Source: Candidatus Zixiibacteriota bacterium (lineage in GTDB: Bacteria; Zixibacteria; MSB-5A5; GN15; JAAZOE01). Taken from it: a stretch of 64,000 nt of DNA. Numbering within the stretch: the first letter of the stretch is position 1; each line of letters begins with the position of its first letter. The stretch is from NCBI GenBank assembly GCA_041394985.1, contig JAWLBI010000001.1:2198882-2262881 (forward strand). The letters are read 5' to 3'. A model generated the notes under the pieces. The model was not told the DNA's origin. It made no database searches and was given only the letters and a program-made list of their open reading frames with translations. The position numbers and the translations under genes were made by a program. This document shows positions 24,772-53,495 of this stretch, piece by piece.

Positions 24772-25842
24772 ATGCAGTCGGAAACCCGCGAATACAATGT
24801 CATAGATGATACCATCGTGCGCCGCACGGCCTCGGAGATTCAACTCCTGTTTCGGCCGGATGCGCCGCAGCCTGCCCTCTCAGGTACCGGGACGACGGAG
24901 AAAGCCCCTCCGCTGATTGATGATATTACATCAGTGCCGCCGGTGACAATACGCTCAATAGAATCAGATGCTGTCGTTTACGCAATCGACGGCGGCTCAT
25001 CGGTTATCGCCAAGGGCGGCAATGTCGAGGTTATCTGCTGGCGGGCCGGATATGTATGCTTCAAAGGCATTCACCGGGAGGGCGAATTCTGCGAGTCCCC
25101 AAACATCCTTGCCTATAACCGGCTTAACATAAACTCAATCATCAATGATTTTCTCGCGGGAACGGATTTCAAACGAGTAATGGATGAAACTCCACTCAGC
25201 CCCGTCAATGAATTGCGCTGGATGAGTGAATGGATGCTGTTGCGGCGATTAATCGATGAAGCGCCCGAAGGGTCACTAATCCTCATGGACGGCACTCTGC
25301 GGGCCAATCCGTTTTTCGATGTCAAGCCTCAGCATGACCTATTCAAAAAGGCGGCCCAAAACGGCATTCATATCGCATCCGTCACAAAGACAAGTTCGCT
25401 TTCATTGGACAAAGCTATCCCGATAGATATTATGGAGATCGGAGCGGATGAGCAAAGTAAAACATGGTATCGCCAGCTCAACATGTCATTGCCAAAGGAT
25501 TCCCCGTGGCTGGGCGATGTGTATCTGGCCGGACTGCATCCCGGCGCAGACAAACGATACCGTGTGGATATCAATCGCTATGACACCGAGGCGGTCGACA
25601 GGATTTTCTCGATACTGGTTTCGGTATCGGACGATACCGAATTCGCCGGATACCCATATCCTTTGGTAGCGGCGCATCGGCAGGCGCGAATCGATTTACT
25701 GTTCAAACAATCAATCATCGAGGCACTCGGTGAGGAATTGAACCGCCTTGACTTTTCCGATGGCTTGTGGCATTTTCTGACCGGTGATATTCACGATAAA
25801 CTCAACGCAGATGTTCTGGAGATAGCGGCGCATGAGCAGTAA
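24772..25842 (+). CDS. nurA: NurA-domain nuclease
   Basis: 356 aa. AIDGGS, ELRWMSEWMLL, ILMDGTL, SVTKTSSL and GYPYPLVAAHRQARI match the conserved NurA catalytic and structural motifs as I recall them. It overlaps herA by 11 nt. Confidence 0.65.
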   Translation: MQSETREYNVIDDTIVRRTASEIQLLFRPDAPQPALSGTGTTEKAPPLIDDITSVPPVTIRSIESDAVVYAIDGGSSVIAKGGNVEVICWRAGYVCFKGIHREGEFCESPNILAYNRLNINSIINDFLAGTDFKRVMDETPLSPVNELRWMSEWMLLRRLIDEAPEGSLILMDGTLRANPFFDVKPQHDLFKKAAQNGIHIASVTKTSSLSLDKAIPIDIMEIGADEQSKTWYRQLNMSLPKDSPWLGDVYLAGLHPGADKRYRVDINRYDTEAVDRIFSILVSVSDDTEFAGYPYPLVAAHRQARIDLLFKQSIIEALGEELNRLDFSDGLWHFLTGDIHDKLNADVLEIAAHEQ

Positions 25843-27394: not shown

Positions 27395-28503
27395 TGCGCT
27401 TCTGCCATTTCGCCGATAATCATCTTGGCGCCGGTTCAGGCGCTCGTGAGGATGATATCCTCCGGAGCTTCGCTGTTTCTATTGACCGGATAATTGACCT
27501 CAAACCCGATTTTGTCATCAATGCCGGTGATTTATTCCATGTGGTTCGTCCTACGAACCGGGTAATTGCATTTGCCTCGGAACAACTGCTTCGATTGGGC
27601 CGCGACGCGAAAATTCCAACGTTTATTATATCGGGCAATCACGATGCCCCAAAGCAGCGCAATATCGGGTCGGTACTATCGATTTTTAAAGATTTCGAAA
27701 ATATCTCTGTTATTTATAAATCACAATATGAGCGCCTGCGCTACGGAGACGTTTCTATCTCGGCCGTGCCGCACTGCCTGACAACCGATATCCTCCACGA
27801 GGAACTGGATAAAATAACGCCCGATCCGGACGCCGAGTTCAATATTCTTGTCCTGCACGGAGTCGTCGCCGGAATCAAAGAATTCCAGATGGCTGATTTG
27901 TCGGAGCAGGAAATATCATCGGAGTATTTTGAGCGGGGATTCGATTACGTCGCCCTTGGGCATTATCATAATTACACCAGGGTGGCGCCGAATACCTATT
28001 ATTCCGGATCGACCGACCGCCTCTCGATGTCCGAGGCGAATCATTCAAAAGGATTCGTCGAGGTCGATCTGGCCAATCCCGATTTGGACGGGCGGATTAC
28101 CTTCCACGAAATTCACACGAGGGAAATGGTTGATTTGCCGGCAGTAAAGGCGAAAGGGCGCTCGGTCGAGGACATAATGTCCGAACTGGAAGGCAAAATC
28201 GCCCAAAGACAGCCCGAAGATAAGATCATCCGCCTGAAAATAACCGACATCCCGGAGGAAACCTACCGGGCGCTCCCGTTCACGAAAATCGCCGAATTGA
28301 AAAACGGGTCATTTTCCCTCGATATCAAATTCGAGAAAGAGGAAAAACCGGAAGAAAACCTGTATGCCGATATCAACCTGGGGCGTCTGGATATCGCGTT
28401 CGAGAAATTCATGGAAAAAAAGACCGTGGAAGACCTCGATAAAAAGCGGATTTTCTCTATGGCGCTTGATCTGTTCAACCGGGTTGAAGGGGACGAGGCA
28501 TAA
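27394..28503 (+). CDS. mre11: Mre11/SbcD-type metallophosphoesterase nuclease
   Basis: 369 aa. Phosphoesterase motifs are FADNHLG, NAGDLFH, SGNHD, VLHG and GHYH. The start overlaps the herA stop (TGATG). Confidence 0.8.
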   Translation: MRFCHFADNHLGAGSGAREDDILRSFAVSIDRIIDLKPDFVINAGDLFHVVRPTNRVIAFASEQLLRLGRDAKIPTFIISGNHDAPKQRNIGSVLSIFKDFENISVIYKSQYERLRYGDVSISAVPHCLTTDILHEELDKITPDPDAEFNILVLHGVVAGIKEFQMADLSEQEISSEYFERGFDYVALGHYHNYTRVAPNTYYSGSTDRLSMSEANHSKGFVEVDLANPDLDGRITFHEIHTREMVDLPAVKAKGRSVEDIMSELEGKIAQRQPEDKIIRLKITDIPEETYRALPFTKIAELKNGSFSLDIKFEKEEKPEENLYADINLGRLDIAFEKFMEKKTVEDLDKKRIFSMALDLFNRVEGDEA

Positions 28504-35733: not shown

Positions 35734-36522
35734 ATGACAGTCTGGGATGCGATAATACTCGGTATCGTGCAGGGATTGACGGAATTCCTGCCGATTTCCT
35801 CATCGGGACATCTGGTCATTAGCGAACACCTTCTCGGAGTCACGATGCCGGGTATCAGTTTCGAAGTGTGGCTGCATTTTGGAACTCTCATTGCAGTCCT
35901 GGTGTATTTCTTTAAGAGAATCGTGCTTTTGCTGACCGCTTTAATCCCCGGCGGTGGGGAAGACGCGACCTATCGTCGCACGACAGTTTGGGCGATTGTT
36001 GTCGGTACGGTGCCTGCGGTCGTAGTCGGGCTGTTGCTGAAGTCGACCATCGAGGAGGCCTTTTCTTCGCCGGTGTTCGCATCATCAATGTTGCTGGTGA
36101 CCGGAGCGTTCTTGTTACTGAGTGTTCTGGCAAAAAATAAACAACTGGGTGTGACGATTCCAAAGGGACTTTACATCGGCCTGGCTCAGGCTTTTGCGAT
36201 TCTGCCCGGTATTTCGCGGTCGGGAAGCACGATTACGATGGCGATGTTTCTGGGAATGAAGCCGTCCGAAGCGGCCGAGTTTTCATTCCTCTTGGCCATC
36301 CCGGCGGTCGGCGGCGCCTTTTTGCTGGATATGCTCTCGGCCGGCGGTGAATTGTTTACCGGCGATGCCTTTATGTTGTATATTGTCGGTACGATGGTTT
36401 CTTTTGTCTTTGGATTACTGTCGATACACTATTTGCTCAAAATAGTGAAAAAAGGTTCGTTCTACTTCTTTGGATTCTATTGCCTGGCAGCGGGCATTGT
36501 CTCGCTGATTTATGTGAGCTGA
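35734..36522 (+). CDS. uppP: undecaprenyl-diphosphate phosphatase
   Basis: 262 aa. GIVQGLTEFLPISSSGHLVI and PGISRSGSTI are the UppP/BacA motifs. Confidence 0.9.
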   Translation: MTVWDAIILGIVQGLTEFLPISSSGHLVISEHLLGVTMPGISFEVWLHFGTLIAVLVYFFKRIVLLLTALIPGGGEDATYRRTTVWAIVVGTVPAVVVGLLLKSTIEEAFSSPVFASSMLLVTGAFLLLSVLAKNKQLGVTIPKGLYIGLAQAFAILPGISRSGSTITMAMFLGMKPSEAAEFSFLLAIPAVGGAFLLDMLSAGGELFTGDAFMLYIVGTMVSFVFGLLSIHYLLKIVKKGSFYFFGFYCLAAGIVSLIYVS

Positions 36523-38093
36523 TGAAAACTATTTTGATAATACGACTCGGGCGGCTCGGCGATGTACTCCTCACCGGACCGACCATTAAAAATCTGCGGT
36601 TTTTATTCCCGACCGCGCAGATCGTGTACGTGACGCGCGAGGCATACAAACCGATTGCGGAGAATTTATTCGGCGTCAACCGGGTGCTGACATTTCCGGA
36701 TGAAGGCAGCTACCTTGACCTGGTCCGGCTGTCCAGCGAATTGGATGATTTCCAGCCCGAACTGGTCGTCGATCTGCATAAGAATTTCCGCTCGTTTCAT
36801 CTGGCGAACCTGAGCAAAGCCCCATACAAAGTCGTATACAAAAAACGTCGTCGCGAGCGTCAGGCGGCGGTCAATGACAAGGAATTCAAAAACTACATCC
36901 CTCACACGACCGATTTATATAATCTGGTTATCGATCAACTCAAAGGGGAGCGGCTGGCCCGCCGCCCCGATATCGTGCTGCCTGATTCTATCCTGATCGG
37001 ACCGGAGGCGGATCGCGACGGCATTTCGCTGGCGCCGGGAGCCGGATCACCGGTCAAGGCCTGGCCGCTTGAGAACTATGCCGCCATTGCCGAGCGCGTC
37101 ATTTACGATTTTCGCAAAGACGTACATGTTTTCGTCGGGGACCGGGAACGGGAGTTTGAATCGAAGTTTGCGCATTTGCCGCAGGAACTCTTGCACATGC
37201 ACCACAATCTTCCGGTTATGGATGTTGCGGCTGAAATGTCAAAAACACTCCTGAGTCTGACGAATGACTCCGGATTAATGCACATGTCGGCCGCGGTTGG
37301 TACTCCGACTATTGCCATATTCGGACCGACGCATGAGCAACTGGGCTTTTACCCGCTCGGCGTCCACGATATTATGCTGGCAACTGATGAAAAATGCCGG
37401 CCGTGCTCGTTACATGGTAACAAGCCATGCCATCGGGAACAACAGTACTGCCTGACCCGCCTGACGATCGATTTCGTTTACAGCAAACTCGTCGAGCGGC
37501 TGGAGGATGAACCGCTCGCCAAGGCCGCATTCATTGACCGCGACGGAACACTCATCGTCGATAAAAACTATCTGGCCGATCCGGACAAAATCGAATTCAT
37601 TCCCGGATCGCTCGATGCCGTTCGCGGACTTAAAGAGTGCGGGTATAAAATCGTTATCATCTCCAATCAATCAGGAGTGGCGCGAGGATTTTTCACTGAG
37701 GAAGCCGTCGAAAAAGTCCACAGCCGCCTCTGGGATTTAATGATTGCAAAAAACTGCGAACCGGACGATATCCTCTTCTGCCCCTATCACCCCGACGGCG
37801 ATATTTCCGAGTACACGCGCGAGCATGGCTGTCGCAAGCCGCGAGCAGGAATGATTGAGGAATCGGCGTTGCGGCTCGGTATCGACGTCAAACGCTCGTT
37901 CATGATAGGCGATAAGCTGAGCGATGTGCAATGCGGACAGGTGGCCGGCGCCATCCCGATTCTCGTTCGCACCGGAAAGGGAGCGAAAGCCGAGGAGGAA
38001 TATCCCGCAGAACCATACCCGCGGCCTTACTTTACTTGTGATACCCTCGGCGACGCCGCAGAACATATCTTATCCGTATGTCATGAAACATAA
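36522..38093 (+). CDS. fusion protein: GT9 (heptosyltransferase-like) glycosyltransferase plus GmhB-type heptose bisphosphate phosphatase
   Basis: N-terminal half: ILIIRLGRLGDVLLTGP and NDSGLMHMSAAVGTPTIAIFGPT (GT9). C-terminal half: FIDRDGTL, ISNQSGVARG, CRKPRAGM and GDKLSD (HAD/GmhB). The ATG overlaps the uppP stop. Confidence 0.75.
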   Translation: MKTILIIRLGRLGDVLLTGPTIKNLRFLFPTAQIVYVTREAYKPIAENLFGVNRVLTFPDEGSYLDLVRLSSELDDFQPELVVDLHKNFRSFHLANLSKAPYKVVYKKRRRERQAAVNDKEFKNYIPHTTDLYNLVIDQLKGERLARRPDIVLPDSILIGPEADRDGISLAPGAGSPVKAWPLENYAAIAERVIYDFRKDVHVFVGDREREFESKFAHLPQELLHMHHNLPVMDVAAEMSKTLLSLTNDSGLMHMSAAVGTPTIAIFGPTHEQLGFYPLGVHDIMLATDEKCRPCSLHGNKPCHREQQYCLTRLTIDFVYSKLVERLEDEPLAKAAFIDRDGTLIVDKNYLADPDKIEFIPGSLDAVRGLKECGYKIVIISNQSGVARGFFTEEAVEKVHSRLWDLMIAKNCEPDDILFCPYHPDGDISEYTREHGCRKPRAGMIEESALRLGIDVKRSFMIGDKLSDVQCGQVAGAIPILVRTGKGAKAEEEYPAEPYPRPYFTCDTLGDAAEHILSVCHET

Positions 38094-39102: not shown

Positions 39103-39207
39103 GAAATAGAGACAAAAGTCGATATAATTTAGTATCAAGCAATATAGCGGTATCGCACGTCATATATGGGACATCGGGGGAACAGCCGCATTGGAGCGCA
39201 TGCCTGC

Positions 39208-42012
39208 ATGAAAGTTATTTTTCGCCATAGTACAGTCTTGTTTTTGCTCGTTACCGTCTGTTGTGTCGTCGGCAACCTGCAGGCGCAATACTATTTCGGG
39301 AAAAACAAAGTTCAGTATACCGATTTCGATTGGTATATGATGACGACCGAGCACTTCAATGTGTACTACTATTCCGATGAGGCTGAACTGGCGGAAATCG
39401 CCGCCGAATCCGCGGAACGCTCATACAAGGCGCTGGCGGCAAAATTCAATCACGAAATCTATTCGAAAATCCCGCTGATTATCTACAGCACGCCGAATCA
39501 CTTCGTGCAAACCAATGTGACGTTCTCATTTCTGCCGGAAAATGTCGCCGGATTCACCGAATTTATCAAGGGCCGCGTCGTTGTCCCTTTTAACGGTTCG
39601 TATTTTGACTTCGACCGCGTTATTCGCCACGAAATGGTGCACGTGTTCACGATTTCGCGCATCAACCGGCACGGTCGCGAATCGGGCCGGTTTTCTGCCG
39701 CGTATCCGCCGCTGTGGTTCACCGAGGGATTAGCGGAATACTGGTCGCGCGAATGGGGAAGCGAGGCCGACCTTATCGTGCGCGATATGGTCATTAACGG
39801 CACCCTGCCGAAAATAGACGAGTTGTGGACGGTTCACGGCACGTTTTTCATGTACAAATTGGGGCAGTCTATCTGTGAATTCATCGCCATGGAATACGGC
39901 GAGGATAAACTCACGCGAATGTTCGACAACTGGTATGTCGGGAAACGGTTCGAGGAAATCGTAAAATTCACGCTTGGCGAAGACCTGAAAACGGTCTCGG
40001 ACAAGTGGCAGTACCATCTCAAGAAAAAATACTATCCGCAGATAGAAGAGCTCGATTTACCGGATAAACAGGCTGACCGCCTCACCGAACATGTCTTCGC
40101 CGTGCGACCGGTGCCCGTGCAGGTAATGAACAGCCAGGGTGAAGAAGAACCCTGGGTTATTTATAAGGCCAATAAGACCGGCTATTCTGCGATCTACATG
40201 CAGCCGGCGGACAAACTCAATGCCAAACCGATCACGCTGCTCAAAGGCGAACGCTCGTCGCGCTATGAATCATTGCACTTACTCTCCAGCGGCGTCGACC
40301 AGTACAACGACAGTCTGCTGGTATTCGCATCGAAATCAAAAGAACGAGACGTTCTGTATATCTATGATTTGACGAAACGCGAAGTCGTCCGCAGATATGA
40401 ATTCGACAGCCTCATAGCAGTGACCTCGCCGCGTTTTTCGCCCAATGGGGATTTCGTCGCCTTTACCGGTAATCACCCGAACGGCTATGCCGATTTATTC
40501 GTACTCGAACTGGCCACCGGAGGCCTCCGCCAGATTACCGATGATATATACAACGACCTTGACCCGAGTTTCGGCCATGACGGCAAATCTCTATTGTTCG
40601 CCTCCGACCGAGGCGGCGCCGGCTATGATGGCTACACGTCGATCTATCGCATTGATCTTGAATCAAAACAGATAACCCGCCTCACGAGCGGAACATACAC
40701 CGATCGGTATCCGTCCGAAAACCCCCTCGGCTCACAGATCGTATTCACCTCCGATCGGGGAGACGAGCGTGCGGTGAATATCTTCATGCTGGAAGACAAT
40801 CAGACGCTCTCACAGGTGACGGCCTATATTACCGGCGCATTTGATCCGCGCTTCTCCGCAGACGGCAGTGAATTATACTTCTATGGGTATCAAAATCGAG
40901 GCTTTCACCTGTTCCGGTCAGATATTAAAGATATTCGCTCCGTTCCTGCGGAGCCACCCGCCTATACTGATGCTCAATGGTTTCCGGGAAAAATCGGCAG
41001 CGAATCGACCGTCAGTAATGTGAAATATAAAACGGATTATTCACTCGATATCGCTCAGTCGACGATTGCATACGATGGCGTCTTCGGGACGCTGGGCGGC
41101 ATACAGGCGGCAATGAGCGATGTTCTCGGCAATAATACATTCGTGTTTCTGCTCTCGAATACGGCTCGGGAAAAAGACGATTTACTGACCAGTTTCAATG
41201 TCGGCGTTACCTATCTCCGCCGTACGAAACGCGTCAATCTCGGTATCGGCGGATTTCATCTGTACGACGAATATTACAACGACTATGACGGATATTACTA
41301 CGAGCGGCTCATCGGCGGAATGTTTTTGGTCAGCTATCCGTTTTCGAAATTTACTCGTGTCGAAACATCGGTCTTTGCCCGCCACAGCGACAAGGATACC
41401 TATGCCGGGCTGGTAAATCGAAAGGCATTCCCGGCCACTCATCTGGTGAGTTTCGTCACCGATAATACGCTCTGGTTGCCGACCGGTCCGATAGACGGGC
41501 GACGATTGAATCTGACGGCAGGTTATTCGTATGATTTTAGAAACGGTCGTAGTTTTAATCGCCTGGCTTCGGCCGATCTCCGCATCTATCAGCGACTGAG
41601 AACCTATTCTTGTATTGCAAGCAGGTTCTTCGCCTTTACTTCAGCGGGTATTGAACCGCAGCGTTTGTATTTGGGGGGCAGTTGGTCATTCCGTGGTTAT
41701 AATCGCCGCCACTGGTATAATCGCAATATCTTGTTTAACTCGGTTGAAATCCGCTTCCCGCTCATCAATGCGCTGATTCTGGCAACGCCCCCCGGCGTAA
41801 TGCGCTTCGGCGGCATTCAAGGAGCCATATTTCACGATCTCGGGACGGCCTGGGATGACCGCTGGGATGGCTGGCACGGATCGTTCGGATTATCGTTCCG
41901 ACTGGCCCTCGGTTACCTGGTTACCCTACGGCTGGACATTTCGCGGACGCATGATTTTCATTATATTGCCTCCCGCAACCGAACCGACTTCTTTTTCGGC
42001 TGGAATTTCTGA
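39208..42012 (+). CDS. multidomain outer-membrane protein: peptidase-MA-like (HExxH) plus PD40/TolB beta-propeller repeats plus Omp85/BamA-type C-terminal barrel
   Basis: Signal peptide ends NLQAQ. It has VIRHEMVHVF...WFTEGLAEYWS. Four or more PD40-like repeats are present (SPRFSPNGDFVAFTG, DPSFGHDGKSLLFASDR, VFTSDRGD, DPRFSADGSELYFYG). The C-terminus has GGSWSFRGY...VEIRFPL and ends FFGWNF. Confidence 0.7.
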   Translation: MKVIFRHSTVLFLLVTVCCVVGNLQAQYYFGKNKVQYTDFDWYMMTTEHFNVYYYSDEAELAEIAAESAERSYKALAAKFNHEIYSKIPLIIYSTPNHFVQTNVTFSFLPENVAGFTEFIKGRVVVPFNGSYFDFDRVIRHEMVHVFTISRINRHGRESGRFSAAYPPLWFTEGLAEYWSREWGSEADLIVRDMVINGTLPKIDELWTVHGTFFMYKLGQSICEFIAMEYGEDKLTRMFDNWYVGKRFEEIVKFTLGEDLKTVSDKWQYHLKKKYYPQIEELDLPDKQADRLTEHVFAVRPVPVQVMNSQGEEEPWVIYKANKTGYSAIYMQPADKLNAKPITLLKGERSSRYESLHLLSSGVDQYNDSLLVFASKSKERDVLYIYDLTKREVVRRYEFDSLIAVTSPRFSPNGDFVAFTGNHPNGYADLFVLELATGGLRQITDDIYNDLDPSFGHDGKSLLFASDRGGAGYDGYTSIYRIDLESKQITRLTSGTYTDRYPSENPLGSQIVFTSDRGDERAVNIFMLEDNQTLSQVTAYITGAFDPRFSADGSELYFYGYQNRGFHLFRSDIKDIRSVPAEPPAYTDAQWFPGKIGSESTVSNVKYKTDYSLDIAQSTIAYDGVFGTLGGIQAAMSDVLGNNTFVFLLSNTAREKDDLLTSFNVGVTYLRRTKRVNLGIGGFHLYDEYYNDYDGYYYERLIGGMFLVSYPFSKFTRVETSVFARHSDKDTYAGLVNRKAFPATHLVSFVTDNTLWLPTGPIDGRRLNLTAGYSYDFRNGRSFNRLASADLRIYQRLRTYSCIASRFFAFTSAGIEPQRLYLGGSWSFRGYNRRHWYNRNILFNSVEIRFPLINALILATPPGVMRFGGIQGAIFHDLGTAWDDRWDGWHGSFGLSFRLALGYLVTLRLDISRTHDFHYIASRNRTDFFFGWNF

Positions 42013-43130
42013 TGATACGATTCCTGTTGTACAGCCTGTTATTAGTGGCGTTGATCGGATGCACCGCTCCCAAAAAGCTCAACCGAAAATTGGGCTATTT
42101 CGAGCCGAAAAACTCCTCAGGGGAAACCATTGTTAATACGAACGGCGGCTCGACCGACTCATTTAGCGGTCGCCTCAACCTATTGTATGAAAAGAAAATA
42201 CGAGGGGCTATCAACAGCCCGATTTATGCCGGTGATGATTTCATCGGCTTTTTGACGACTCGCAACAGATTTCTCTTTTTCGACCCCGAAACCGGTAAGC
42301 GGATTTGCCGGGTCAAAAAGGGGAAAGGCTATATTCTCAATCCGGTCGTCACCGATTCTCTCATTGTCCTGGTCCGAAAGATCCCACTCGGGGAAATCCG
42401 TGTCAGGAACCTATTTACCAACAAAACAATACAGGAACGGACAGTAAATCAAATCCGTTCCGGGCCGATACTATGTAATAACAGCCTGGCCATCGGCACG
42501 ACAACCGGTATTGAACTGTTGTCGCTGCCGGAATTGCGAACCGAATGGACGTTTGATGTAAAAACGATTATTGACCTGACACCCCAAACCGACGGCGAGA
42601 CGGTTTATTTTGCCGGAGGAGGTGGATTAGTCGGGGCGGTCAATGCGTCTGATGGCGGGCTGGTTTGGAAGCAGGAGTTGAAACGGGATATCGTTTCCGA
42701 GATGACACTCGGAACATATCTGTATCTGGGATTAGACGATGGCGCTGTGCTTGCCCTGGATGTTCGAACCGGTCGAGAAGTGTGGGAAACCCAACTCGAG
42801 TGTGAGGTACACGGTCAGTTCAGCGAGGCAAACGGGCTTTTGTATTTCGGAGGAACCGATACGAAAGTGTATGCGCTGTCAGTTAACACCGGAGAAATCG
42901 TATGGTCGTTCGCCACGGCAGGTATCGTGACTGCGCCGCCGATTACATTTGGTAACTCCGTGATAGTCGGTTCTTACGATCGTCATCTTTACAGCCTGGA
43001 TCGTGAAACCGGACAACTTCTGGACAAGCAACTACTCGAAGGGCCCGTTAATTTTGCCGCGATGGTGCACAAGAACAAGATACTCGTCGCCTGCCGCAAA
43101 AACAGATTGTATTGTTTTGAGGGTAACTAA
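42012..43130 (+). CDS. PQQ-like beta-propeller lipoprotein (BamB-like)
   Basis: 372 aa. Lipobox ALIGCT. Repeated G-x-x-W motifs (GGLVWKQEL, GREVWETQL, GEIVWSFAT). Start overlaps the upstream stop by 1 nt. Confidence 0.7.
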   Translation: MIRFLLYSLLLVALIGCTAPKKLNRKLGYFEPKNSSGETIVNTNGGSTDSFSGRLNLLYEKKIRGAINSPIYAGDDFIGFLTTRNRFLFFDPETGKRICRVKKGKGYILNPVVTDSLIVLVRKIPLGEIRVRNLFTNKTIQERTVNQIRSGPILCNNSLAIGTTTGIELLSLPELRTEWTFDVKTIIDLTPQTDGETVYFAGGGGLVGAVNASDGGLVWKQELKRDIVSEMTLGTYLYLGLDDGAVLALDVRTGREVWETQLECEVHGQFSEANGLLYFGGTDTKVYALSVNTGEIVWSFATAGIVTAPPITFGNSVIVGSYDRHLYSLDRETGQLLDKQLLEGPVNFAAMVHKNKILVACRKNRLYCFEGN

Positions 43131-45322
43131 TGAATCGATCGATTAATCTCAGTGAAAAAAGCCTGACCACCGATATCAGAGACATCTCTCGGGAAGTCGC
43201 TCACGAGTTATTTCTTATCTGTCGCAAAGCGGGAATCTATACCGTCGATCATCCGATGGTTGTCAAGGGAGTTGCCAAACCGTTCCTTGGCCTGCAAAAA
43301 GTTTTTTCATATAAGAAGTATTTTGATCTGTACTTCATCGAGGGGCGTCTGTACGCCAACAATATCCTGATCACGGATATCGGGGCATCCACATTTCTCA
43401 AAGACCGTATGCATGAGTTCGATATCAAGTCGATTCTATTCTCCGCGGAATTGACGACGGACGAATTGCTGTCATTTATCAGCCGTCTCGTGACGAAAGT
43501 TTCTCCGGCGCATCCTGAATATAAAATTGAAGAATTTCTCAGACGCCGCCGGATTGACCATATTCTTATCAATCACCCGCTCGCTGAAAAGATTTTCAAT
43601 GCCGGGTTGAAATATCGCGACGGCCAGTACAATGAATACACCGTTCGACGTATCGTCTCCGATTATTTTGCCGGCGATATTTACCTTGCGGTTAAGGCGC
43701 TGACCGAAAAATATGCCAGTACGACGGAACAGATCGAGGAGACCGGCATCGATTATTACCGCGAAATCGTTGCCTATCTGTTACCGGAAAAATTCGCGCA
43801 ATTACCGCCCTCGGAATTAATGGATATCGCCAGAGAAATCATTACCGGCTGCGAATCATTCGATGATGATGCCTGCACACGCCTCAATCAACTTATCAGT
43901 GCCCTCGATTATCATCCTCGGCGCATCGAATTGTACGAGAAAATCAAACAACTGTTGACCGAGTACAACATCGACCGCGGTATCCTGAAAAGATCATTGA
44001 GCGGTTCGATTGTACTTCAGAAAGAAGTCGGCAGCGAAATCGATCGTATCGTCAACAAATTCTTTTCAAAGCAGAACGAAGAGCCGCTGTTCGATTCATT
44101 CCATGACCATTTCATGCGCCTCGTGAGAACCCGCCAGATGGGGAAGGCGTCGTCGATTGCCGAACAGGTGATTTCGTATTTGTCCTCCGAGGATGCCCTC
44201 TATCGGCAATACTCGATGATTCTCACGAAGGATCTCACCAAATCGGCCGTGGATGTCGGCGAAATCGCCTTTTTGGATGTATTGTTGACGCAATTAAAAT
44301 CACTCTTCACTCGCGGCCTCGAGACAATCGAATTTGCCGAAGTGGCGGTATTTCTCATTCGCATCGCAATCTCCAATCGCCGCTATGCTGCCGTTGCCGA
44401 TTTCCTGCATATCATCCGGGCAGGGCGAAAGCAGCAGGATGATGTCATGGTGTACGATTCGATTGCCATTCGCCGGGTGTTCGAGCAACTAAATGATCGT
44501 GAACTGATCTCGTTCCTCATCAGAGAAATACACCAAAACGACAATAATTCAATCAAGGCGACCCGGGATATTCTCATTGCCATGCAATCGGACGAAGTCG
44601 CCCTGCAACTGGCGCAGATTGTAGCCCATCACGAGCGGCATGTCCGGCAGCACAGCCTGAAAATTCTTTCTGCTTTGGGTAAACCGGCCGTCACGATTTT
44701 CTCTGAGGTCCTGCGCGATGAAACGAATTTCTATCGGCCGGCTGACAGACGCGAGCTTCCTGATGAAAAATGGTATCTCATCCGCAATGCCATCTTTGTT
44801 CTCGGCAATCTCCGAGACAGTGATGCCTGCAATGCCCTGCGGTTGCGATTGACCGATTCGGATATTCGCGTACGCATGGAAATTATCAAGGCGCTGGAAA
44901 AAATCGACGGCGACGACGGTGTCGATTTGTTGATGATCCTCTGTGAAGATTCCGACGAAACAGTCCGCGAGGCGGCGATAATAGCCCTTGGTTTGTTCAA
45001 CAGGCAAGACCTGTTGCCATTCTTCAAGGACCTGCTTATGAAGCAGAAAAACGAGGTCTACCGCATAGTGAATGCCATCGCTCAGACGGGAAATCCCGAG
45101 GCATATCAATTCCTCGAAGAGCTTGCCAAAGACAAGGATCGAATTAAGGACCTGTCCTCCGGCAAAGCCTCAGCTTCTGACATAAAGAAAATGATTCTTG
45201 CGGCCATGGAAAAATTCGGCGACGACACGACCAAAAAGCGCGTCGAGGAACTCCAGCAGCAATCGACCGGTCAGCTATCAAAGACAGCCAGAATGCTTCT
45301 TGGCAAGATGAATAGTAAATAA
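43130..45322 (+). CDS. HEAT-repeat protein, hypothetical
   Basis: 730 aa with no signal peptide. C-terminal HEAT/PBS-lyase-like repeats (DSDIRVRMEIIKALEKI, DSDETVREAAIIALG). Start overlaps the upstream stop by 1 nt. Confidence 0.6.
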   Translation: MNRSINLSEKSLTTDIRDISREVAHELFLICRKAGIYTVDHPMVVKGVAKPFLGLQKVFSYKKYFDLYFIEGRLYANNILITDIGASTFLKDRMHEFDIKSILFSAELTTDELLSFISRLVTKVSPAHPEYKIEEFLRRRRIDHILINHPLAEKIFNAGLKYRDGQYNEYTVRRIVSDYFAGDIYLAVKALTEKYASTTEQIEETGIDYYREIVAYLLPEKFAQLPPSELMDIAREIITGCESFDDDACTRLNQLISALDYHPRRIELYEKIKQLLTEYNIDRGILKRSLSGSIVLQKEVGSEIDRIVNKFFSKQNEEPLFDSFHDHFMRLVRTRQMGKASSIAEQVISYLSSEDALYRQYSMILTKDLTKSAVDVGEIAFLDVLLTQLKSLFTRGLETIEFAEVAVFLIRIAISNRRYAAVADFLHIIRAGRKQQDDVMVYDSIAIRRVFEQLNDRELISFLIREIHQNDNNSIKATRDILIAMQSDEVALQLAQIVAHHERHVRQHSLKILSALGKPAVTIFSEVLRDETNFYRPADRRELPDEKWYLIRNAIFVLGNLRDSDACNALRLRLTDSDIRVRMEIIKALEKIDGDDGVDLLMILCEDSDETVREAAIIALGLFNRQDLLPFFKDLLMKQKNEVYRIVNAIAQTGNPEAYQFLEELAKDKDRIKDLSSGKASASDIKKMILAAMEKFGDDTTKKRVEELQQQSTGQLSKTARMLLGKMNSK

Positions 45323-45364: not shown

Positions 45365-45402
45365 CGCACTGTCTCTGCCACAGAGACAGTGCGCTTGTGT
45401 TT
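45365..45402 (+). terminator. intrinsic terminator after the HEAT-repeat gene
   Basis: 13-bp perfect stem cgcactgtctctg/cagagacagtgcg with a 3-nt loop, followed by cttgtgttt. Confidence 0.55.
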
Positions 45403-47959: not shown

Positions 47960-48119
47960 TCGGTTAAGCTGATAGAGAGACGAAATCTCTTTGAATAAAA
48001 CGAACCGTTCTCTGATAGATTGGTATGAACCCCGCGGCCACCCGCCGGGTATCATAAACCGTAAGGCAGATATCGTGCCCGGTACGCCGCGGCGGATCCA
48101 CATCTGCCGGGAAGGATTT

Positions 48120-48337
48120 GTAGGTCAAGACCCTTGTGGTCTTGACAAAACCGTAGGGCAGGAGCCCTGCGCTCCTGCCAACGCGCGCAGACATGTCGGT
48201 CAAAACCCTTGTGGTCTTGACAAAACCGTAGGGCAGGTCCCCAATGGGACCTGCCATCGCGCGAAGCGCGAAATCAAAATTGGTAGCCCGACCCTTTAGG
48301 GTCGGGAGAACTGGTACCCCAAGGCTTTAGCCTTGGT
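48120..48337. repeat. array of modular GC-rich hairpins (dnaK-dnaJ spacer, left block)
   Basis: Two tandem composite units (48120-48190, 48195-48275) are built from gtcaagacc/ggtcttgac, ggcaggagc/gctcctgcc or ggcaggtccc/gggacctgcc, and cgcgc-gaa-gcgcg. They are followed by cccgaccc-ttta-gggtcggg and ccaaggc-ttta-gccttgg. Confidence 0.85.
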
Positions 48338-48364
48338 CAAAAATCAACAGGGAAGACGTACAAC

Positions 48365-48535
48365 ATGAACAAAGAGAAACCGGTTTTCTCGAAAGTCCGC
48401 GAGTTCTATGAGAAGCACTTTGAGTCCTTCCGAGACTTCTTATCCGGCAAAGGACAGCCGGAACTAATCCCGGTCGAGAACTCGTCCGATCGACAGAAGA
48501 AGAAATTAGGCAAGTATTACATCGAGCGGACATAA
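48365..48535 (+). CDS. possible 56-aa basic protein (MNKEKPVFSKVREFYEKHFESFRDFLSGKGQPELIPVENSSDRQKKKLGKYYIERT)
   Basis: A clean ATG-to-TAA ORF between the two hairpin blocks. Its composition is non-repetitive. The RBS is weak (gggaag) and no homology is recognised. Confidence 0.3.
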   Translation: MNKEKPVFSKVREFYEKHFESFRDFLSGKGQPELIPVENSSDRQKKKLGKYYIERT

Positions 48536-48544
48536 TCTCAGTCT

Positions 48545-48726
48545 TTGTAGGCATACATTGATAAACCGAGGGCATCGCATGCCCGCATCGAAAGGGGCCC
48601 CCGCGGCCCCTTTTGCATGCAAAATTGTAGGTCGAACCCCCTGCGGTCTTGACAAAAGCCGTAGGGCAGGTCCCCAATGGGACCTGCCATCGCGCGGAGC
48701 GCGAAAAAACCACGGCCGTGCCGTGG
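48545..48726. repeat. array of modular GC-rich hairpins (dnaK-dnaJ spacer, right block)
   Basis: gggcat-cgc-atgccc (48570-84), aggggcc-cccgc-ggcccct, a third copy of the composite unit (48627-48705), and ccacgg-ccgtg-ccgtgg (48710-26). Confidence 0.85.
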
Positions 48727-48774: not shown

Positions 48775-49359
48775 ATGATCGATCCGTACGAAATGCTCGG
48801 TATCGGCCGCAACGCCGATCCGGCTCAGATTAAAGCCGCCTTCCGACGACTGGCGAAGAAATATCATCCCGATGTCGGCGGCACGCATGAAAAATTCAAG
48901 CGGATTCTCTGGGCCTACGAGCAACTCGGCGGATACGGCAAACCAACGGGGAGAGAGGAAACCGAGGCGTTCGATTATGAAATCGATGTCAAGATAGACA
49001 GGCGTCGCCAGGTGCAGGATCTCTTCGATGACCTCACCGATGGCGTGTTGACCTTCTTCGATGTCGACAAGCCGGAATACCTGAATTTGTTTTTACAGCT
49101 GACGCCCGATGAGGCCAAACGAGGCGGCAAGATTCGCCTCAACCTGCCGCTGACGCGCAAATGCCGGCGGTGCTACGGATTCGGACAAATTCTCTTCATC
49201 TCCTGCAAGCAGTGCGGGGGAGTGGGCGAGGAAACATATACCAAGGCTTCGGTGTTAGAAATACCGGCCGGAGTAAGCGACGGATGGCGCGCGAAACAGC
49301 ACATCGACAACCTGTTTCTGACCGTCATCTTCAAAATAGAAGGAAACGATCGAAAATAA
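48775..49359 (+). CDS. J-domain protein with a single zinc-finger pair (DnaJ paralogue)
   Basis: 194 aa. DPYEMLGI...KYHPDVGG (HPD motif), CRRCYGFG...CKQCGGVG. It lacks the G/F region and most of the DnaJ C-terminal domain. Confidence 0.75.
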   Translation: MIDPYEMLGIGRNADPAQIKAAFRRLAKKYHPDVGGTHEKFKRILWAYEQLGGYGKPTGREETEAFDYEIDVKIDRRRQVQDLFDDLTDGVLTFFDVDKPEYLNLFLQLTPDEAKRGGKIRLNLPLTRKCRRCYGFGQILFISCKQCGGVGEETYTKASVLEIPAGVSDGWRAKQHIDNLFLTVIFKIEGNDRK

Positions 49360-50499
49360 ATGGCCAGGGATTATTATCAAATCCTCGGCGTGGATGAAAA
49401 GGCGAGCAAGGACGAGATCAAGAAAAAGTATCGCACCCTCGCCAAGAAATATCATCCCGACCGCAACAAGGGCGATGCGAAAGCCGAAGAGAAGTTCAAG
49501 GAAATCTCGGAAGCCTACGACACCCTCAAGGACGACAAGAAGCGCCAGCAGTACGATATGCTCAGGCGCTACGGCGGTGATCCACGCATGGCCGGAGCCC
49601 GCGGCGCAGGATTCCCCGGCGGCGGTTTCGGCAACGGCAATTTCCAGCAGTCGTTCGGCGGTGATTTCGACATCAATGATTTGTTCGGCGGCGGGGGACT
49701 GGGTGACCTGTTCAGTTCGCTCTTCGGCGACAATGTCCGCACTCGAGCCAGACAGCGGCAACAACCGCCGAATCGTCCGACCAATGGCCGTGACATCAAG
49801 ATCGACATGAAAATCTCGGTCGAGGAATCGGCCTCGGGCACACAGAAGAAAATCCGCATCATGCTTCCCAATGAATGTGAAACCTGCGGCGGTTCTGGGT
49901 TTACCAAAGGCGGCGGCAACCGCGTCTGCTCGCGCTGTAACGGTACCGGGCAGGTATCGTTCGCACAGGGCGGTTTCGCCATCTCGCGGCCGTGCCCGAC
50001 CTGTTTCGGCCGAGGTGTGGAGCAGGGACAGATTTGCGACCGCTGTCGCGGCACCGGAGCGGTGAAAAAACGCAAGACGATTACGGTCAAGATTCCGGCC
50101 GGAATCGAGGACGGCGGTTCGGTGCGCCTGCGGGGTATCGGTTTTCCCGGCAGGAACGGCGGTTCCAAGGGTGATTTATTAATAAAGGTGAAGATTATGA
50201 GCGATCAGAAATTTGAGCGCGACGGCAAGCATATCAAAACGACGGTGGATGTGACCTTCCCGCAGGCGGCGCTGGGGGCGAAGATCCCGGTCCAGACGCT
50301 GACAAAGAAGGTGATGCTCAACATCCCGGCGGGCACCCAACCCGGCGCGGTATTGCGCCTGAGAGGCGCAGGCATCAAAGTCGGCGACGACACAGGGGAT
50401 TTATTAGTAACGATAAACCTGACAGTCCCAAAGAACCTCTCCGCCCGCCAGAAAGAATTACTGGAGGAATTCGAGGAATTGTCGAAGCAGGCAGCGTGA
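49360..50499 (+). CDS. dnaJ: molecular chaperone DnaJ
   Basis: 379 aa. J domain with HPD, a G/F-rich region, four CxxCxGxG motifs, and C-terminal domains. Confidence 0.93.
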
Positions 50500-50529: not shown

Positions 50530-51375
50530 ATGTGCGAAAAAGAGAATCAAAAACTGCCCAAATATCTCTATAAATATATAGATTGGGAAAAACTATATCA
50601 TAGAAGGATGTTAGCCGATAGAGAATTCTTCTTTGCAAAACCAAGTTCGTTTAATGATCCCTTTGATTGTTTGTTAGAACCTGATTATTCTCTCCTTAAT
50701 AAAGCACAAATATATAAAATTTATATAAGCCATTTAAAGAGAGATTTACCAATGGCCAATAGGAGTGAGATACGAAAAAGAGCGAAAGATTGGCAAAAAA
50801 AAGGGCTCTGGAAAAACGAAGCGAATAAGAAGCGATCTGAAGAGTGGTCATATAACTATAAAAATGAGAATCTGGGATTATTCTGTCTATCATCAAAACA
50901 TGATGAAATTTTGATGTGGTCTCATTATGCAAAAGGGCATTCTGGTTTATGTTTACAATTCGATACAAAAAGGTTGATGGATGATTTTGAAAATCAGCTA
51001 ATAGTTGAGGGAAAACTCTTTGAAATAATTCCTATTGAATATCACCTTGACATGCCAATAATAAATCCATCGGAGGAAGGAGATGATTATTTTAAAAGAC
51101 TGGTTACAATAAAAGCAAAGAGATGGGAATATGAAAACGAATATAGAATTGTCCTATTGGGTTTTAAAGATAATGATAAGTTTTTAGAAAATAACGAAAG
51201 AATATATAAATATCCATCAAAGGCAATAACAGGCGTCTATTTTGGTTATAATACTACTATAGAGACTGAACAGAGCATCATGGCAATACTGCGAGAAGGA
51301 AGAATCCAACCTTACTTTTTTAAGTCAAAAGTAAAAAAGAATAAATTTGAATTAGAGTTTATACAAATTAATTAA
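50530..51375 (+). CDS. DUF2971 family protein
   Basis: 281 aa. FFAKPSSFNDPFDC and MWSHYAKGHSGLCLQFD match the conserved DUF2971 motifs as I recall them. The gene is visibly much more AT-rich than its neighbours. Confidence 0.6.
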   Translation: MCEKENQKLPKYLYKYIDWEKLYHRRMLADREFFFAKPSSFNDPFDCLLEPDYSLLNKAQIYKIYISHLKRDLPMANRSEIRKRAKDWQKKGLWKNEANKKRSEEWSYNYKNENLGLFCLSSKHDEILMWSHYAKGHSGLCLQFDTKRLMDDFENQLIVEGKLFEIIPIEYHLDMPIINPSEEGDDYFKRLVTIKAKRWEYENEYRIVLLGFKDNDKFLENNERIYKYPSKAITGVYFGYNTTIETEQSIMAILREGRIQPYFFKSKVKKNKFELEFIQIN

Positions 51376-51398
51376 AAAAGTAATATGTCCTGGGATTG

Positions 51399-51435
51399 CC
51401 CGGTGCCCCAACCCTTCTTAAGGATTGGGATGAGA
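51399..51435. repeat. hairpin module cccggtgccccaaccc-ttctta-(a)gg(a)ttggg-atgaga
   Basis: A degenerate copy of the module found at 52650-52685, which has a perfect 8-bp stem cccaaccc/gggttggg. Confidence 0.7.
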
Positions 51436-51536
51436 TGCCATGACACCGAGATGGACAAAGTTATCAGATAAATAATTTATGTCATGGCAAAATGTGATGT
51501 CCTTTTCTTCTTCAAAGCATTTATGTATTCATACAT

Positions 51537-51917
51537 TTGGTCTGGTTTAATAACTTTTATAAAGGTAGCGGTCATTGCGAGGAGCGCGTCCGCCTGGGCG
51601 GACCAGCGACGTCGCAATCTCAGGGTATTATCTTGAAATATGGATATGTATATATACTCACAAACAAGGCACATACTGTTTTATATACCGGCGTAAGTTC
51701 TAATCTTAAAACGCGAATACTTCAGCATAAAGAAAAATATCATTCCGGTTTCACCGGCAAATACAATGTCGATATGCTCGTTTACTATGAATCATGCGAT
51801 GGTATCAGAGGCGCTATTGAACGAGAAAAGCAGATTAAGAATTTCTCACGAGAGAAAAAGGAAGATCTAATCAATTCCATGAATCCTGATTGGAAAGACT
51901 TGTGTAGTGAAATCTGA
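51537..51917 (+). CDS. GIY-YIG nuclease family protein
   Basis: The core YVYILTNKAHTVLYTGVSSNLKTRILQHK...REKQIKNFSREKK is a GIY-YIG (UPF0213-like) domain. The conserved part begins near the TTG at 51633. The upstream 32 codons are read through a hairpin repeat and may not be translated. Confidence 0.8.
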   Translation: MVWFNNFYKGSGHCEERVRLGGPATSQSQGIILKYGYVYILTNKAHTVLYTGVSSNLKTRILQHKEKYHSGFTGKYNVDMLVYYESCDGIRGAIEREKQIKNFSREKKEDLINSMNPDWKDLCSEI

Positions 51918-51958
51918 CACCCTGAGATTGCGACGCCCTAAGAAGGGCTCGCAATGAC
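51571..51958 (+). mobile_element. candidate GIY-YIG selfish element bounded by inverted hairpin modules
   Basis: The left module is at 51571-51625 (gtcattgcgag...cgcaatctcaggg). The right module is at 51921-51958 (cctgagattgcgac...tcgcaatgac). The outer arms are the same sequence in opposite orientation, and a truncated second copy lies 1 kb away. Confidence 0.35.
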
Positions 51959-51988
51959 ACCGAGTTCGATTAATGCTAGTAATATACA

Positions 51989-52318
51989 TCAAAGCATATC
52001 AGCCATCCACAGGCGGCGGAGCATAATTCCCGCCAGCATCAGCGCCAGCAGCACATTCCAAAACCAGGGGCGCATCCAGAACCGTTTCAAATTATCTTTA
52101 GACTTCTTATTCTTCGCGAGCGTGTACTCAAATCCGGTCAATATCAAAGCGGGGAGGGCCGCCTCGATAGGCGGGACCTCGGACAAGCCGATAACTTTCT
52201 TGAAAAACAGCGCCAACAGGATAACGCTGATCCCGGTCCCCAGGGACATCTGTATATATTCATTGCAAAGAAATTCCCAGACCTTCTTCATCATGCGACC
52301 CCATATGTTCTTACTCAA
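51989..52318 (-). CDS. hypothetical small membrane protein
   Basis: 109 aa with three hydrophobic helices (GISVILLALFF, ALPALILTGF, WFWNVLLALMLAGIML). It is preferred over the overlapping + strand ORF, which has junk-like composition. Confidence 0.4.
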   Translation of the reverse strand: MSKNIWGRMMKKVWEFLCNEYIQMSLGTGISVILLALFFKKVIGLSEVPPIEAALPALILTGFEYTLAKNKKSKDNLKRFWMRPWFWNVLLALMLAGIMLRRLWMADML

Positions 52319-52513
52319 TACTACCCCTCAAATCTAAATCAATTCACCGGCTTGGCAAGATAATAAATTTGTAATTCCCGAGAGAGAATATTCGTAGGGC
52401 GGATTCTTCTTATAATCCGCCAATTCATATATCAGGATGGTAGATTTGAAGACAAATCTGCCATACAGTATAATGTGATTCTCTCGTTTTGAAAAAGGTA
52501 TTTATTTCCTCTA

Positions 52514-52648
52514 CGTTTGGTCTGTTTTAACAACTTTTATAGAAGCACCAGTCATTGCGAGGAGCGCGTCCGCCTGGGCGGACCAGCGACGTCGCAATCT
52601 CAGGGTTTTATCTTGAAATACGGATTTGTATATATACTCACAAACAAA
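52514..52648 (+). pseudogene. truncated second copy of the GIY-YIG left end (leader, hairpin module and first ~12 codons)
   Basis: About 135 bp aligns by eye to 51535-51655 with few mismatches, including LKYGFVYILTNK. Homology stops abruptly at about 52649, where another hairpin module begins. Confidence 0.7.
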
Positions 52649-52649
52649 G

Positions 52650-52685
52650 CCCGGTGCCCCAACCCTTCTTAGGGTTGGGATGAGA
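52650..52685. repeat. hairpin module cccggtgccccaaccc-ttctta-gggttggg-atgaga
   Basis: Perfect 8-bp stem. A paralogue lies at 51399-51435. Confidence 0.75.
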
Positions 52686-52715
52686 CTTGGTACCCCTGAA
52701 ATCCCCACGACTCCC

Positions 52716-52757
52716 GTCATTCCGATTGAGACCCGTCTTCGGGCCTACTGAGGAATC
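52716..52757. repeat. hairpin module gtcattccgattgagacccgtcttcgggcctactgaggaatc
   Basis: About 48 nt is alignable with 1017-1064, with roughly six mismatches. Confidence 0.75.
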
Positions 52758-52774
52758 CGCTCTTGCCTCTTCGT

Positions 52775-52927
52775 AGGTCAATCCGCCTAGGCGGATTGTG
52801 GTCTTGACATGCGCGAAGCGCAAACTTCCTTTCCCGTGGTTGGTGTACGTCCCCGTGCATCAACAAAAGACCGGAGGTCAATCCGCCCAGGCGGATTGTG
52901 GTCTTGACATGCGCGAAGCGCAAACTT
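52775..52927. repeat. two 53-bp direct repeats at an exact 100-bp period
   Basis: aggtcaatccgcc(t/c)aggcggattgtggtcttgacatgcgcgaagcgcaaactt occurs at 52775-52827 and 52875-52927 with one mismatch. It is built from the same sub-modules as the dnaK-dnaJ spacer repeats (ggtcttgaca, gcgcgaagcgc). Confidence 0.85.
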
Positions 52928-53323
52928 TCATTTTCACCCTAACTCCGCTCCAGATTCCCACCTCACCTTCTATAGTAGAAAGGATATTCTACCAGTATGT
53001 CCAAAAACGCAAAAACACCGAAAAAAATTTTTCCTATCCGAGGGATAACTCTTTGTCTCCCAACGGCAGTTTATCCACATTTCGGCCCCCGAAACGATAA
53101 CTCCCTACACGACAACGAGATAATAAAATCCGCCCCAAAACAACATTTATGTTACACCACAACGACTTATCCCTCCATCGCAATTGTTAGGAAATCGCAT
53201 ATCGGTACAAGAACAATATCAAATCTGCATATATGTGGCCTGAATTCTCCACAAAATGCAATCCATGGCACAGACGACTCCCCCTCCTTCCCGGGCGTGT
53301 TGAAAAACCTATTACAAGCACGA

Positions 53324-53362
53324 GTCATTGCGAGCCCTTCTTAGGGCGTCGCAATCTCAGGA
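53324..53362. repeat. hairpin module gtcattgcgagcccttcttagggcgtcgcaatctcagga
   Basis: Identical over 39 nt to 63534-63572 and the reverse complement of 51921-51958. Confidence 0.85.
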
Positions 53363-53495
53363 TATTTGCGACAAGCACTTGCGATTGATTTTTGCCTGTG
53401 TTCCTAAGGCGATACCTTTGGGAAATGACTTTTTCAACAAGCCCTCCCAAGGAGGGGGCGGGGGGGTGGTTGATTGATCTTTGTCAAGTATCGCG

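Follow-up and report, generated by a model that had tools for sequence, protein, structure and literature searches.

We analyzed a 64,000-nucleotide (nt) stretch of the Candidatus Zixiibacteriota contig JAWLBI010000001.1, here called the window, whose positions are used for all coordinates below, and focused on three consecutive open reading frames (ORFs) of its forward strand. ORF1 (39208..42012, 934 aa from MKVIF; an alternative ATG at 39166 would add 14 residues) encodes a WD40-like Omp85 fusion with a signal peptide, a gluzincin peptidase, a TolB-type propeller and an Omp85 barrel. ORF2 (42012..43130, 372 aa) encodes a lipoprotein with the lipobox LIGC and a PQQ/BamB-type propeller, the conserved partner of ORF1, and ORF3 (43130..45322, 730 aa) encodes a HEAT/ARM solenoid with a small N-terminal α/β domain and without a signal peptide. 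A first-pass annotation, made from the letters of the window, had described the three ORFs as joined by the one-nucleotide overlaps TGATG (42012) and TAATG (43130), and both junctions read exactly so: the TGA stop (42010-42012) and the ATG start (42012-42014) share one nucleotide in TTC TGATG ATA, as do the TAA stop (43128-43130) and the ATG at 43130 in AAC TAATG AAT. A terminator-like hairpin on the forward strand (45365..45393, 13-bp stem with 8 G-C pairs) lies 43 nt past the ORF3 stop, between ORF3 and hsp20, and is the only one found for the three-ORF unit; it likely marks the end of the transcription unit. The downstream hsp20 gene has its own AGGAG ribosome-binding site, and ORF3 appears to be co-transcribed with ORF1 and ORF2. 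A sigma-70 promoter scan upstream of ORF1 scored no better than shuffled sequence, so we claim no promoter for ORF1. A CIRCE (controlling inverted repeat of chaperone expression) operator was looked for upstream of hsp20/dnaK and not found, and searches of the 64-kb window for a PEGA homologue or a second Omp85 protein were likewise empty. A deposited protein from a Candidatus Zixiibacteriota metagenome-assembled genome (MAG) is 100% identical to ORF1 over 934 aa and the gene order is kept among the loci of relatives, which confirms that ORF1 is a real gene rather than a chance ORF.

To describe ORF1 we used two alignments, a close set of 44 homologues (50-80% identity) and a diverse set of 40 family representatives (28-43% identity), together with an AlphaFold model built from a 44-sequence alignment (predicted local distance difference test score, pLDDT, 76; predicted template modeling score 0.68). 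The model contains a helical peptidase domain (residues 42-290), 24 propeller strands (297-579) and a C-terminal barrel. The protein begins with a Sec signal peptide (39208..39285, forward strand, aa 1-26, read from the sequence), followed by the conserved mature N-terminus QxYFGKNKVQY. Residues Q27, Y29, F30, G31, K32, N33 and K34 are invariant in the close set, and N33, K34 and W42 are still invariant in the diverse set. This mature N-terminus, extended as QxYFGKNKVQYxxFxW (39286-39330, aa 27-42), is among the most conserved stretches of the family, yet residues 21-40 are unstructured in the AlphaFold model; it may act as a docking strand, as a plug or as an autoinhibitory segment. We also considered ORF1 as a lipoprotein and rejected this, as the cysteines of its signal peptide are not conserved and no lipobox fits.

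The peptidase MA (gluzincin) domain spans 39286..40095 on the forward strand (aa 27-296), as defined by Peptidase_MA_2 matches and the helical domain of the model. Peptidase_MA_2 matches 23 of 25 family members, with a best E of 1e-16. The zinc-binding and catalytic motif HEMVH (39628..39642, forward strand, aa 141-145) supplies H141, E142 and H145, and the motif WFTEGLAEYW (39715..39744, forward strand, aa 170-179) supplies E173, the presumed third zinc ligand, 28 residues past H145, a spacing which we take to be that of ColG. Weak profile matches to M9 collagenase catalytic domains agree with this assignment, in that HEYTH of ColG aligns to HExxH and its WFDEGTAEF to WFxEGxAE. ORF1 therefore carries both elements that define the gluzincins of clan MA(E), HExxH and a downstream glutamate ligand, and no M48 or TPR match was found in it in the Pfam scan. 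Residues H141, E142, H145 and E173 are invariant in both alignments down to 28% identity, as are W170 and G174, and HExxH is kept in 348 of 348 family-like proteins. Judged by sequence, the zinc site is intact, and because it is so strictly conserved, catalysis is predicted for this domain. A second conserved but low-confidence loop lies just upstream of HExxH (39490-39585, aa 95-125), with F99, Q101, T102, N103, G115, F116, E118, K121, G122 and R123 as its conserved residues. It contains a GGFTE element that resembles the GxMEN exopeptidase motif of M1 aminopeptidases, a likeness that hints at aminopeptidase-type substrate binding.

The central part of ORF1 is a six-bladed TolB/PD40-type β-propeller (40096..40947, forward strand, aa 297-580), delineated by PD40 and TolB hidden Markov model (HMM) matches and by the 24 AlphaFold strands. 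PD40 scores 56 bits in the Pfam scan (cut-off 20.9), and TolB structures are the top matches of the propeller by sequence as well as by fold. The TolB model TIGR02800 of NCBIfam reaches 101.1 bits against an equivalog cut-off of 343.15 and matches only over model positions 204-302, the propeller part; neither the N-terminal α/β domain of TolB nor a full-length TolB match was found in the NCBIfam scan.

The C-terminal part is an Omp85-type β-barrel (41035..42009, forward strand, approximately aa 610-934, ending in FFFGWNF), supported by AlphaFold, Foldseek and profile matches. In the model the barrel shows 15 clear strands and a low-confidence first strand (612-614). Foldseek ranks TolB first for the whole model, followed by Fusobacterium nucleatum BamA (9ccg, E 1.2e-9), Escherichia coli BamA and TamA, the superposition on TamA 8us2 giving a root mean square deviation of 4.8 Å over 341 columns. 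The ORF1-family profile, searched against the PDB, matches TolB at E 7e-33 and, over residues 609-928, the barrel of F. nucleatum BamA (E 5.4e-15). PF01103 gives no match to ORF1 at E<=0.1 in the Pfam scan, and many homologues carry precomputed PF01103 matches. The (V/I)RG(F/Y) motif is a defining feature of the Omp85 superfamily; in ORF1 this motif 3 is SFRGY (41686..41700, forward strand, aa 827-831), placed by AlphaFold in the loop 815-839 between barrel strands 11 and 12 (802-814 and 840-860), the position of L6 in BamA. The segment G823-G830 (GGSWSFRG), D877 and the FFFGWNF end are invariant in the close set; in the diverse set G823, G824, G830, E847 and R849 are invariant and R829 is conserved in at least 90% of the sequences. 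Motif 4, (F/G)xDxG, is FHDLG (41830..41844, forward strand, aa 875-879), of which D877 is invariant and F875 and G879 are at least 90% conserved in the close set, and FxDxG occurs in 14 of 14 distant family members checked. ORF1 thus has the barrel expected of the Omp85/TpsB superfamily, 16-stranded and homologous to those of BamA, TamA and FhaC. No POTRA family match was found in the Pfam and NCBIfam scans, and the 580-630 linker contains no β-α-α-β-β element in the AlphaFold model. We therefore identify ORF1 with high confidence as a peptidase, a six-bladed propeller and a 16-strand Omp85 barrel joined in one protein without POTRA domains. HMMs, motifs and AlphaFold agree with the fusion of signal peptide, HExxH peptidase, PD40 propeller and POTRA-free Omp85 barrel that the first-pass annotation had read; its count of at least four PD40 repeats is raised by the model to six blades.

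We searched 1.84 billion representative sequences exhaustively with HMMER, clustering at 50% identity, and obtained 1023 clusters at E<=1e-30. Among the 150 best, most are full-length proteins of about 900-1100 aa with 29-52% identity, and some are shorter or partial. Cluster-member taxonomy is sparse, and the names 'Saccharimonadales' and 'archaeon' look like mis-binned MAGs. The named members come from Zixibacteria, Gemmatimonadota, Calditrichia and Bacteroidota, and some are annotated by NCBI as 'BamA/TamA family outer membrane protein'. Ten Omp85/TpsB subfamilies, a 'WD40-like' one among them, were defined by Heinz & Lithgow 2014 (Front Microbiol 5:370, PMC4104836). Their Table S2 lists PF01103+PF07676 architectures, and Table S3 gives for each member a Phyre2 match to the BamA/TamA barrel, a TolB match and a 'best aminopeptidase hit'; H1XQ58, D0MEQ5, B0VIY2, A9FGN9 and B4UC98 are among the WD40-like members. 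ORF1 shares with this subfamily the barrel behind a TolB-like PD40 propeller, the aminopeptidase-like domain and the lack of POTRA, and we assign it there. The 2014 description differs in that Zixibacteria are not included and its main text is silent on the peptidase domain, and a term search of the paper finds no mention of a neighboring lipoprotein or PEGA gene. Novelty of the architecture, as implied by the first-pass annotation, does not hold: the fusion is already catalogued and widespread. The same annotation had named a widespread and already characterized family as the outcome that would speak against its reading, and here only the first half applies, as Hanson et al. 2024 (PMC11116518) describe the WD40-like subfamily, together with the metalloprotease and patatin-like ones, as groups that 'have not been well characterized'. 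Our literature search found no functional study of a WD40-like Omp85 fusion, none linking Omp85 to PEGA and none on a Zixibacteria BamA.

ORF2 starts with LLVALIGC, a lipobox of the kind found in the BamB lipoprotein signal, and PQQ_2, the Pfam family of BamB, scores 86 bits against a cut-off of 27.6; the reading of ORF2 as a PQQ/BamB-type propeller lipoprotein is borne out by both. Its closest natural solved structures are BamB proteins (E 5e-17 to 2e-13), which appear alongside designed propellers and PQQ dehydrogenases. ORF2 remains far below the BamB equivalog cut-offs, with 101.6 bits versus 285.2 for TIGR03300 and 63 versus 423 for NF008351.

Next, we examined the gene neighborhood among relatives. 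Two strict peptide patterns matched 269 GTDB species-representative genomes, and the neighborhood counts refer to the best 80 loci, all of which look like Zixibacteria, several labelled Ignavibacteriales having identical synteny. The order uppP, GT9/GmhB fusion, radical-SAM gene, ORF1, ORF2, ORF3, hsp20 and dnaK is kept almost throughout, and the ORF1 gene lies within this syntenic core region in 80 of 80 Zixibacteria loci examined, which differs from the sporadic, horizontally transferred distribution suggested for the minor Omp85 subfamilies (PMC4104836). A lipobox ORF of 373-503 aa follows ORF1 in every Zixibacteria locus with at least 1.1 kb of downstream sequence, in most cases overlapping the ORF1 stop. 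Overlaps of ORF1 and ORF2 that appear to be 13 nt long in other loci were set aside as an artefact of choosing the earliest in-frame start within the conserved GWNF-stop codons. Many ENA MAG records of the 'binchicken' type, titled 'uncultured Ignavibacteriales' (L003-L007 and many other loci), show the full Zixibacteria-type synteny with ORF1 at 50-66% identity, and they probably carry wrong NCBI taxonomy labels.

Synteny across a single phylum is no proof of functional linkage, and we therefore turned to eleven loci of more distant family members in Gemmatimonadota, Calditrichia, Bacteroidota and unassigned contigs, whose identity to ORF1 is 35-42%. In seven of the eleven (L081, L082, L083, L086, L087, L089 and L090) a PQQ_2 propeller lipoprotein is the next gene, adjacent or overlapping, while the flanking genes differ; the five tested directly (L081, L082, L083, L086 and L087) are ORF2 homologues with phmmer E values of 1e-42 to 5e-16. 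An eighth locus, L088, has at the same position a 376-aa protein with no Pfam match on record. A PEGA-domain protein of about 255 aa comes next in six of these eight loci (L081-L083 and L086-L090). The remaining three (L084, L085 and L091) form a third clade, with a PEGA-like gene, then a lipoprotein of 422-446 aa, then a second fusion paralogue. This second paralogue lies about 4 kb downstream of the first, across the PEGA-like, lipoprotein and AlaX-like genes (L085 12996-14802, L091 7180-7915, L084 13068-14814). Because the lipoprotein is kept beside the fusion in unrelated contexts, the conserved core consists of these two genes, usually accompanied by PEGA; the lipoprotein gene directly follows the fusion in at least four phyla, often overlapping it by 1 nt. 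The pairing of a BamB-like lipoprotein with the fusion, claimed by the first-pass annotation, is thereby upheld: ORF2 homologues stand immediately downstream in Gemmatimonadota, Calditrichia, Bacteroidota and further unassigned contigs. What is new here is the ORF1-ORF2 pair kept across phyla, PEGA as the usual third gene outside Zixibacteria, and the restriction of the HEAT gene to Zixibacteria.

These data also bear on a reading of the pair as a specialized insertase or translocase, in which the propeller replaces POTRA as the substrate scaffold, ORF2 serves as its BamB and the peptidase matures one dedicated substrate. The retention of both functional Omp85 motifs fits this idea, as do BamA and TamA as the closest barrel structures, BamB as the nearest natural structure to ORF2, and the NCBI name 'BamA/TamA family outer membrane protein' given to some members. 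BamB, however, binds BamA via POTRA domains, and ORF1 has neither POTRA nor a POTRA-like element in its linker. Across the phyla no conserved candidate substrate gene was found, the recurrent neighbors being the PQQ lipoprotein and the PEGA protein alone, and a zinc site conserved throughout the family points to catalysis as the core activity. On balance we regard an insertase or translocase as unlikely.

ORF3 behaves differently from the other two. HEAT_2 scores 92.6 bits in the Pfam scan, with repeats at about 540-680, and the N-terminus lacks a signal peptide, in line with the earlier reading of a 730-aa HEAT-repeat protein; no membrane segment was found either. In its AlphaFold model (pLDDT 88), this cytoplasmic protein folds as an ARM/HEAT solenoid preceded by a small α/β domain. 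Foldseek and the PDB profile search return only generic ARM/HEAT solenoids and designed alphaRep proteins, which offer no hint of a function, and neither gives a match for the α/β domain. The homologues of ORF3 comprise 26 matches, all in Zixibacteria. ORF3 is present close behind ORF2 in about 60 Zixibacteria loci and absent in eight (L005, L010, L011, L013, L014, L027, L054 and L061), where hsp20 follows ORF2 directly. Since it is confined to Zixibacteria and missing from eight of their loci, the HEAT gene lies outside the conserved core as a lineage-specific accessory. One could still picture a three-part machine, with ORF3 as a subunit or regulator that connects the complex in the envelope with the cytoplasm or with the downstream hsp20-dnaK-dnaJ chaperone genes, and the TAATG overlap, the proximity to ORF2 in those 60 or so loci and the placement of the hairpin after ORF3 alone speak for it. 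This is the least probable of the alternatives that we weighed: ORF3 is a generic solenoid lacking any signal peptide or membrane segment, eight loci keep ORF1-ORF2-hsp20 without it, a PEGA-domain protein occupies its position in other phyla, where no ORF3 homologue was found, and the whole uppP-to-dnaK region is syntenic, which makes adjacency alone weak evidence. The three-gene unit of the first-pass annotation accordingly shrinks to two genes.

The architecture of ORF1 and its constant partner suggest how the pair may work. ORF1 and ORF2 would form an outer-membrane-anchored, periplasm-facing protease complex. The N-termini of Omp85 barrels face the periplasm; because of this, and because the enzyme domain of PlpD, an Omp85 protein of the patatin-like kind, is periplasmic, the peptidase and propeller of ORF1 would hang in the periplasm from the barrel. 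Peptidase-fused propellers, as in tricorn and S9/DPP-IV, restrict access to unfolded chains or peptides, and the propeller or propellers of the complex may similarly gate the zinc site or present unfolded polypeptides to it. The barrel would serve as an anchor, possibly also as a docking seam for substrates, the likeliest of which would be envelope proteins in transit, in the quality control of proteins of the outer membrane or periplasm, or in their processing. As such, ORF1-ORF2 would be a cis-fused analogue of the arrangement of BepA and the β-barrel assembly machinery (BAM), with BepA as the closest functional analogy.

The opposite topology has been raised for Omp85 enzyme fusions (PMC4104836): in a type V-like manner, the barrel would export its own peptidase and propeller for extracellular protein degradation in nutrition, as in the original model of PlpD. 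One contig (L086) places the locus near genes for a TonB-dependent receptor and for proteins with type IX secretion system tails, a point in favor of surface display. Nevertheless, later work found the enzyme domain of PlpD exclusively in the periplasm (PMC11116518); export would require about 580 residues, a closed six-bladed propeller among them, to pass through the membrane; and the partner ORF2 has an ordinary lipobox. We consider surface display improbable, more so than an insertase.

Taking these points together, the WD40-like Omp85 identity combined with an ORF1-ORF2 envelope-protease complex is our best explanation overall, and we lean slightly towards it. Its functional part, taken alone as a periplasmic envelope-protein protease complex and argued from analogy and conservation, is a tentative proposal that we hold at somewhat less than even. 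Several observations weigh against the reading. The NCBIfam model Omp85_fam matches ORF1 only over residues 813-933, at E 3.3e-6 and 26.9 bits against a cut-off of 200, and Peptidase_MA_2 scores 27-31 bits (27.1 in the Pfam scan), below its cut-off of 32.4. AlphaFold confidence is low at residues 21-40, 95-125 and 601-622, so the interdomain geometry and the first barrel strand are uncertain. The envelope-related upstream neighbors, uppP and the GT9-GmhB fusion, reflect phylum-wide synteny and show no cross-phylum association, and no evidence here, computational or experimental, points to a substrate.

A more elaborate form of the protease-complex proposal would make ORF1-ORF2, with the PEGA protein in most other phyla sampled, a self-contained proteolytic machine of the outer membrane, in which the lateral gate of the Omp85 barrel captures β-barrel or other envelope polypeptides that are stalled or misfolded and the propeller feeds them to the zinc peptidase. 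We put this form forward as a long shot, about as doubtful as the insertase. If true, BAM-BepA would have a covalently fused counterpart that is widespread in the Fibrobacteres-Chlorobi-Bacteroidetes (FCB) group and in Gemmatimonadota, and degradation would join assembly, translocation and PlpD-type functions among the roles of Omp85 barrels. Outer-membrane biogenesis depends centrally on Omp85 proteins, and beyond BamA, TamA, TpsB and PlpD the enzyme-fused subfamilies are functionally uncharacterized (PMC11116518). In Zixibacteria the WD40-like subfamily is a vertically inherited core gene of the whole phylum, and it combines a universally conserved zinc site with a dedicated BamB-like lipoprotein and often PEGA. 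What was an entry in a catalogue thereby becomes a two- or three-component system open to testing, with partners named for work in culturable carriers such as Rhodothermus, Caldithrix and myxobacteria.

Additional features were observed elsewhere in the window. Upstream, a single ORF (36480-38093) encodes a glycosyltransferase of family 9 (heptosyltransferase-like) joined to a HAD-type phosphatase domain, read as GmhB-like, and is kept upstream of the operon across Zixibacteria with uppP and the radical-SAM gene. A HerA-type DUF87 helicase gene (25832-27394) abuts an unannotated 369-aa ORF (27394-28503). Behind dnaK lie tandem J-domain genes, a 194-aa ORF (48775-49359) with, by eye, a J-domain and a Cys-rich zinc-finger region, and a full-length DnaJ gene (49360-50499); no grpE is among the ORFs annotated near dnaK/dnaJ. 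Palindromic intergenic repeat families resembling repetitive extragenic palindromes or miniature inverted-repeat transposable elements occur at 48119-48706 and 51398-53366. Examples are GTCAAGACCCTTGTGGTCTTGAC, GGCAGGTCCCCAATGGGACCTGCC, a direct repeat of 139 nt whose copies at 51532 and 52512 are 91% identical, and an inverted repeat of 38 nt, perfect between 51921 and 53324. Just past dnaJ, the segment 50001-52000, which carries a DUF2971 gene (50530-51375), has a low GC content (0.40 versus about 0.50 elsewhere) and may be an inserted island.

Comparison with known systems places the ORF1-ORF2 pair among familiar components in an unfamiliar combination. With BamA-BamB it shares the 16-strand Omp85 barrel, the RG(F/Y) and (F/G)xDxG motifs and a PQQ-type propeller lipoprotein; it differs in that ORF1 lacks POTRA and carries a peptidase and a propeller of its own, and in that ORF2 stays below the BamB equivalog cut-off. 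With TolB it shares the six-bladed PD40 propeller, but only that part is matched, and in ORF1 the propeller is embedded in an outer-membrane protein. PlpD of Pseudomonas aeruginosa resembles ORF1 in having an enzyme domain, periplasmic in its case, fused N-terminally to an Omp85 barrel, whereas it has one POTRA, is a lipase instead of a protease and forms a homodimer, and its abstract mentions neither a propeller nor a partner lipoprotein (PMC11116518). BepA, a metalloprotease that binds BAM for outer-membrane-protein quality control as described in PMC13478230 and PMC13655028, offers the closest parallel: both it and ORF1 set an HExxH protease and a repeat scaffold at an Omp85 barrel, in the periplasm in BepA and, by prediction, in ORF1. 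BepA belongs to M48 and uses TPR repeats, while the peptidase of ORF1 is Peptidase_MA_2/M9-like, its scaffold is a propeller, and it shares one polypeptide with the barrel by covalent fusion instead of being recruited to it.

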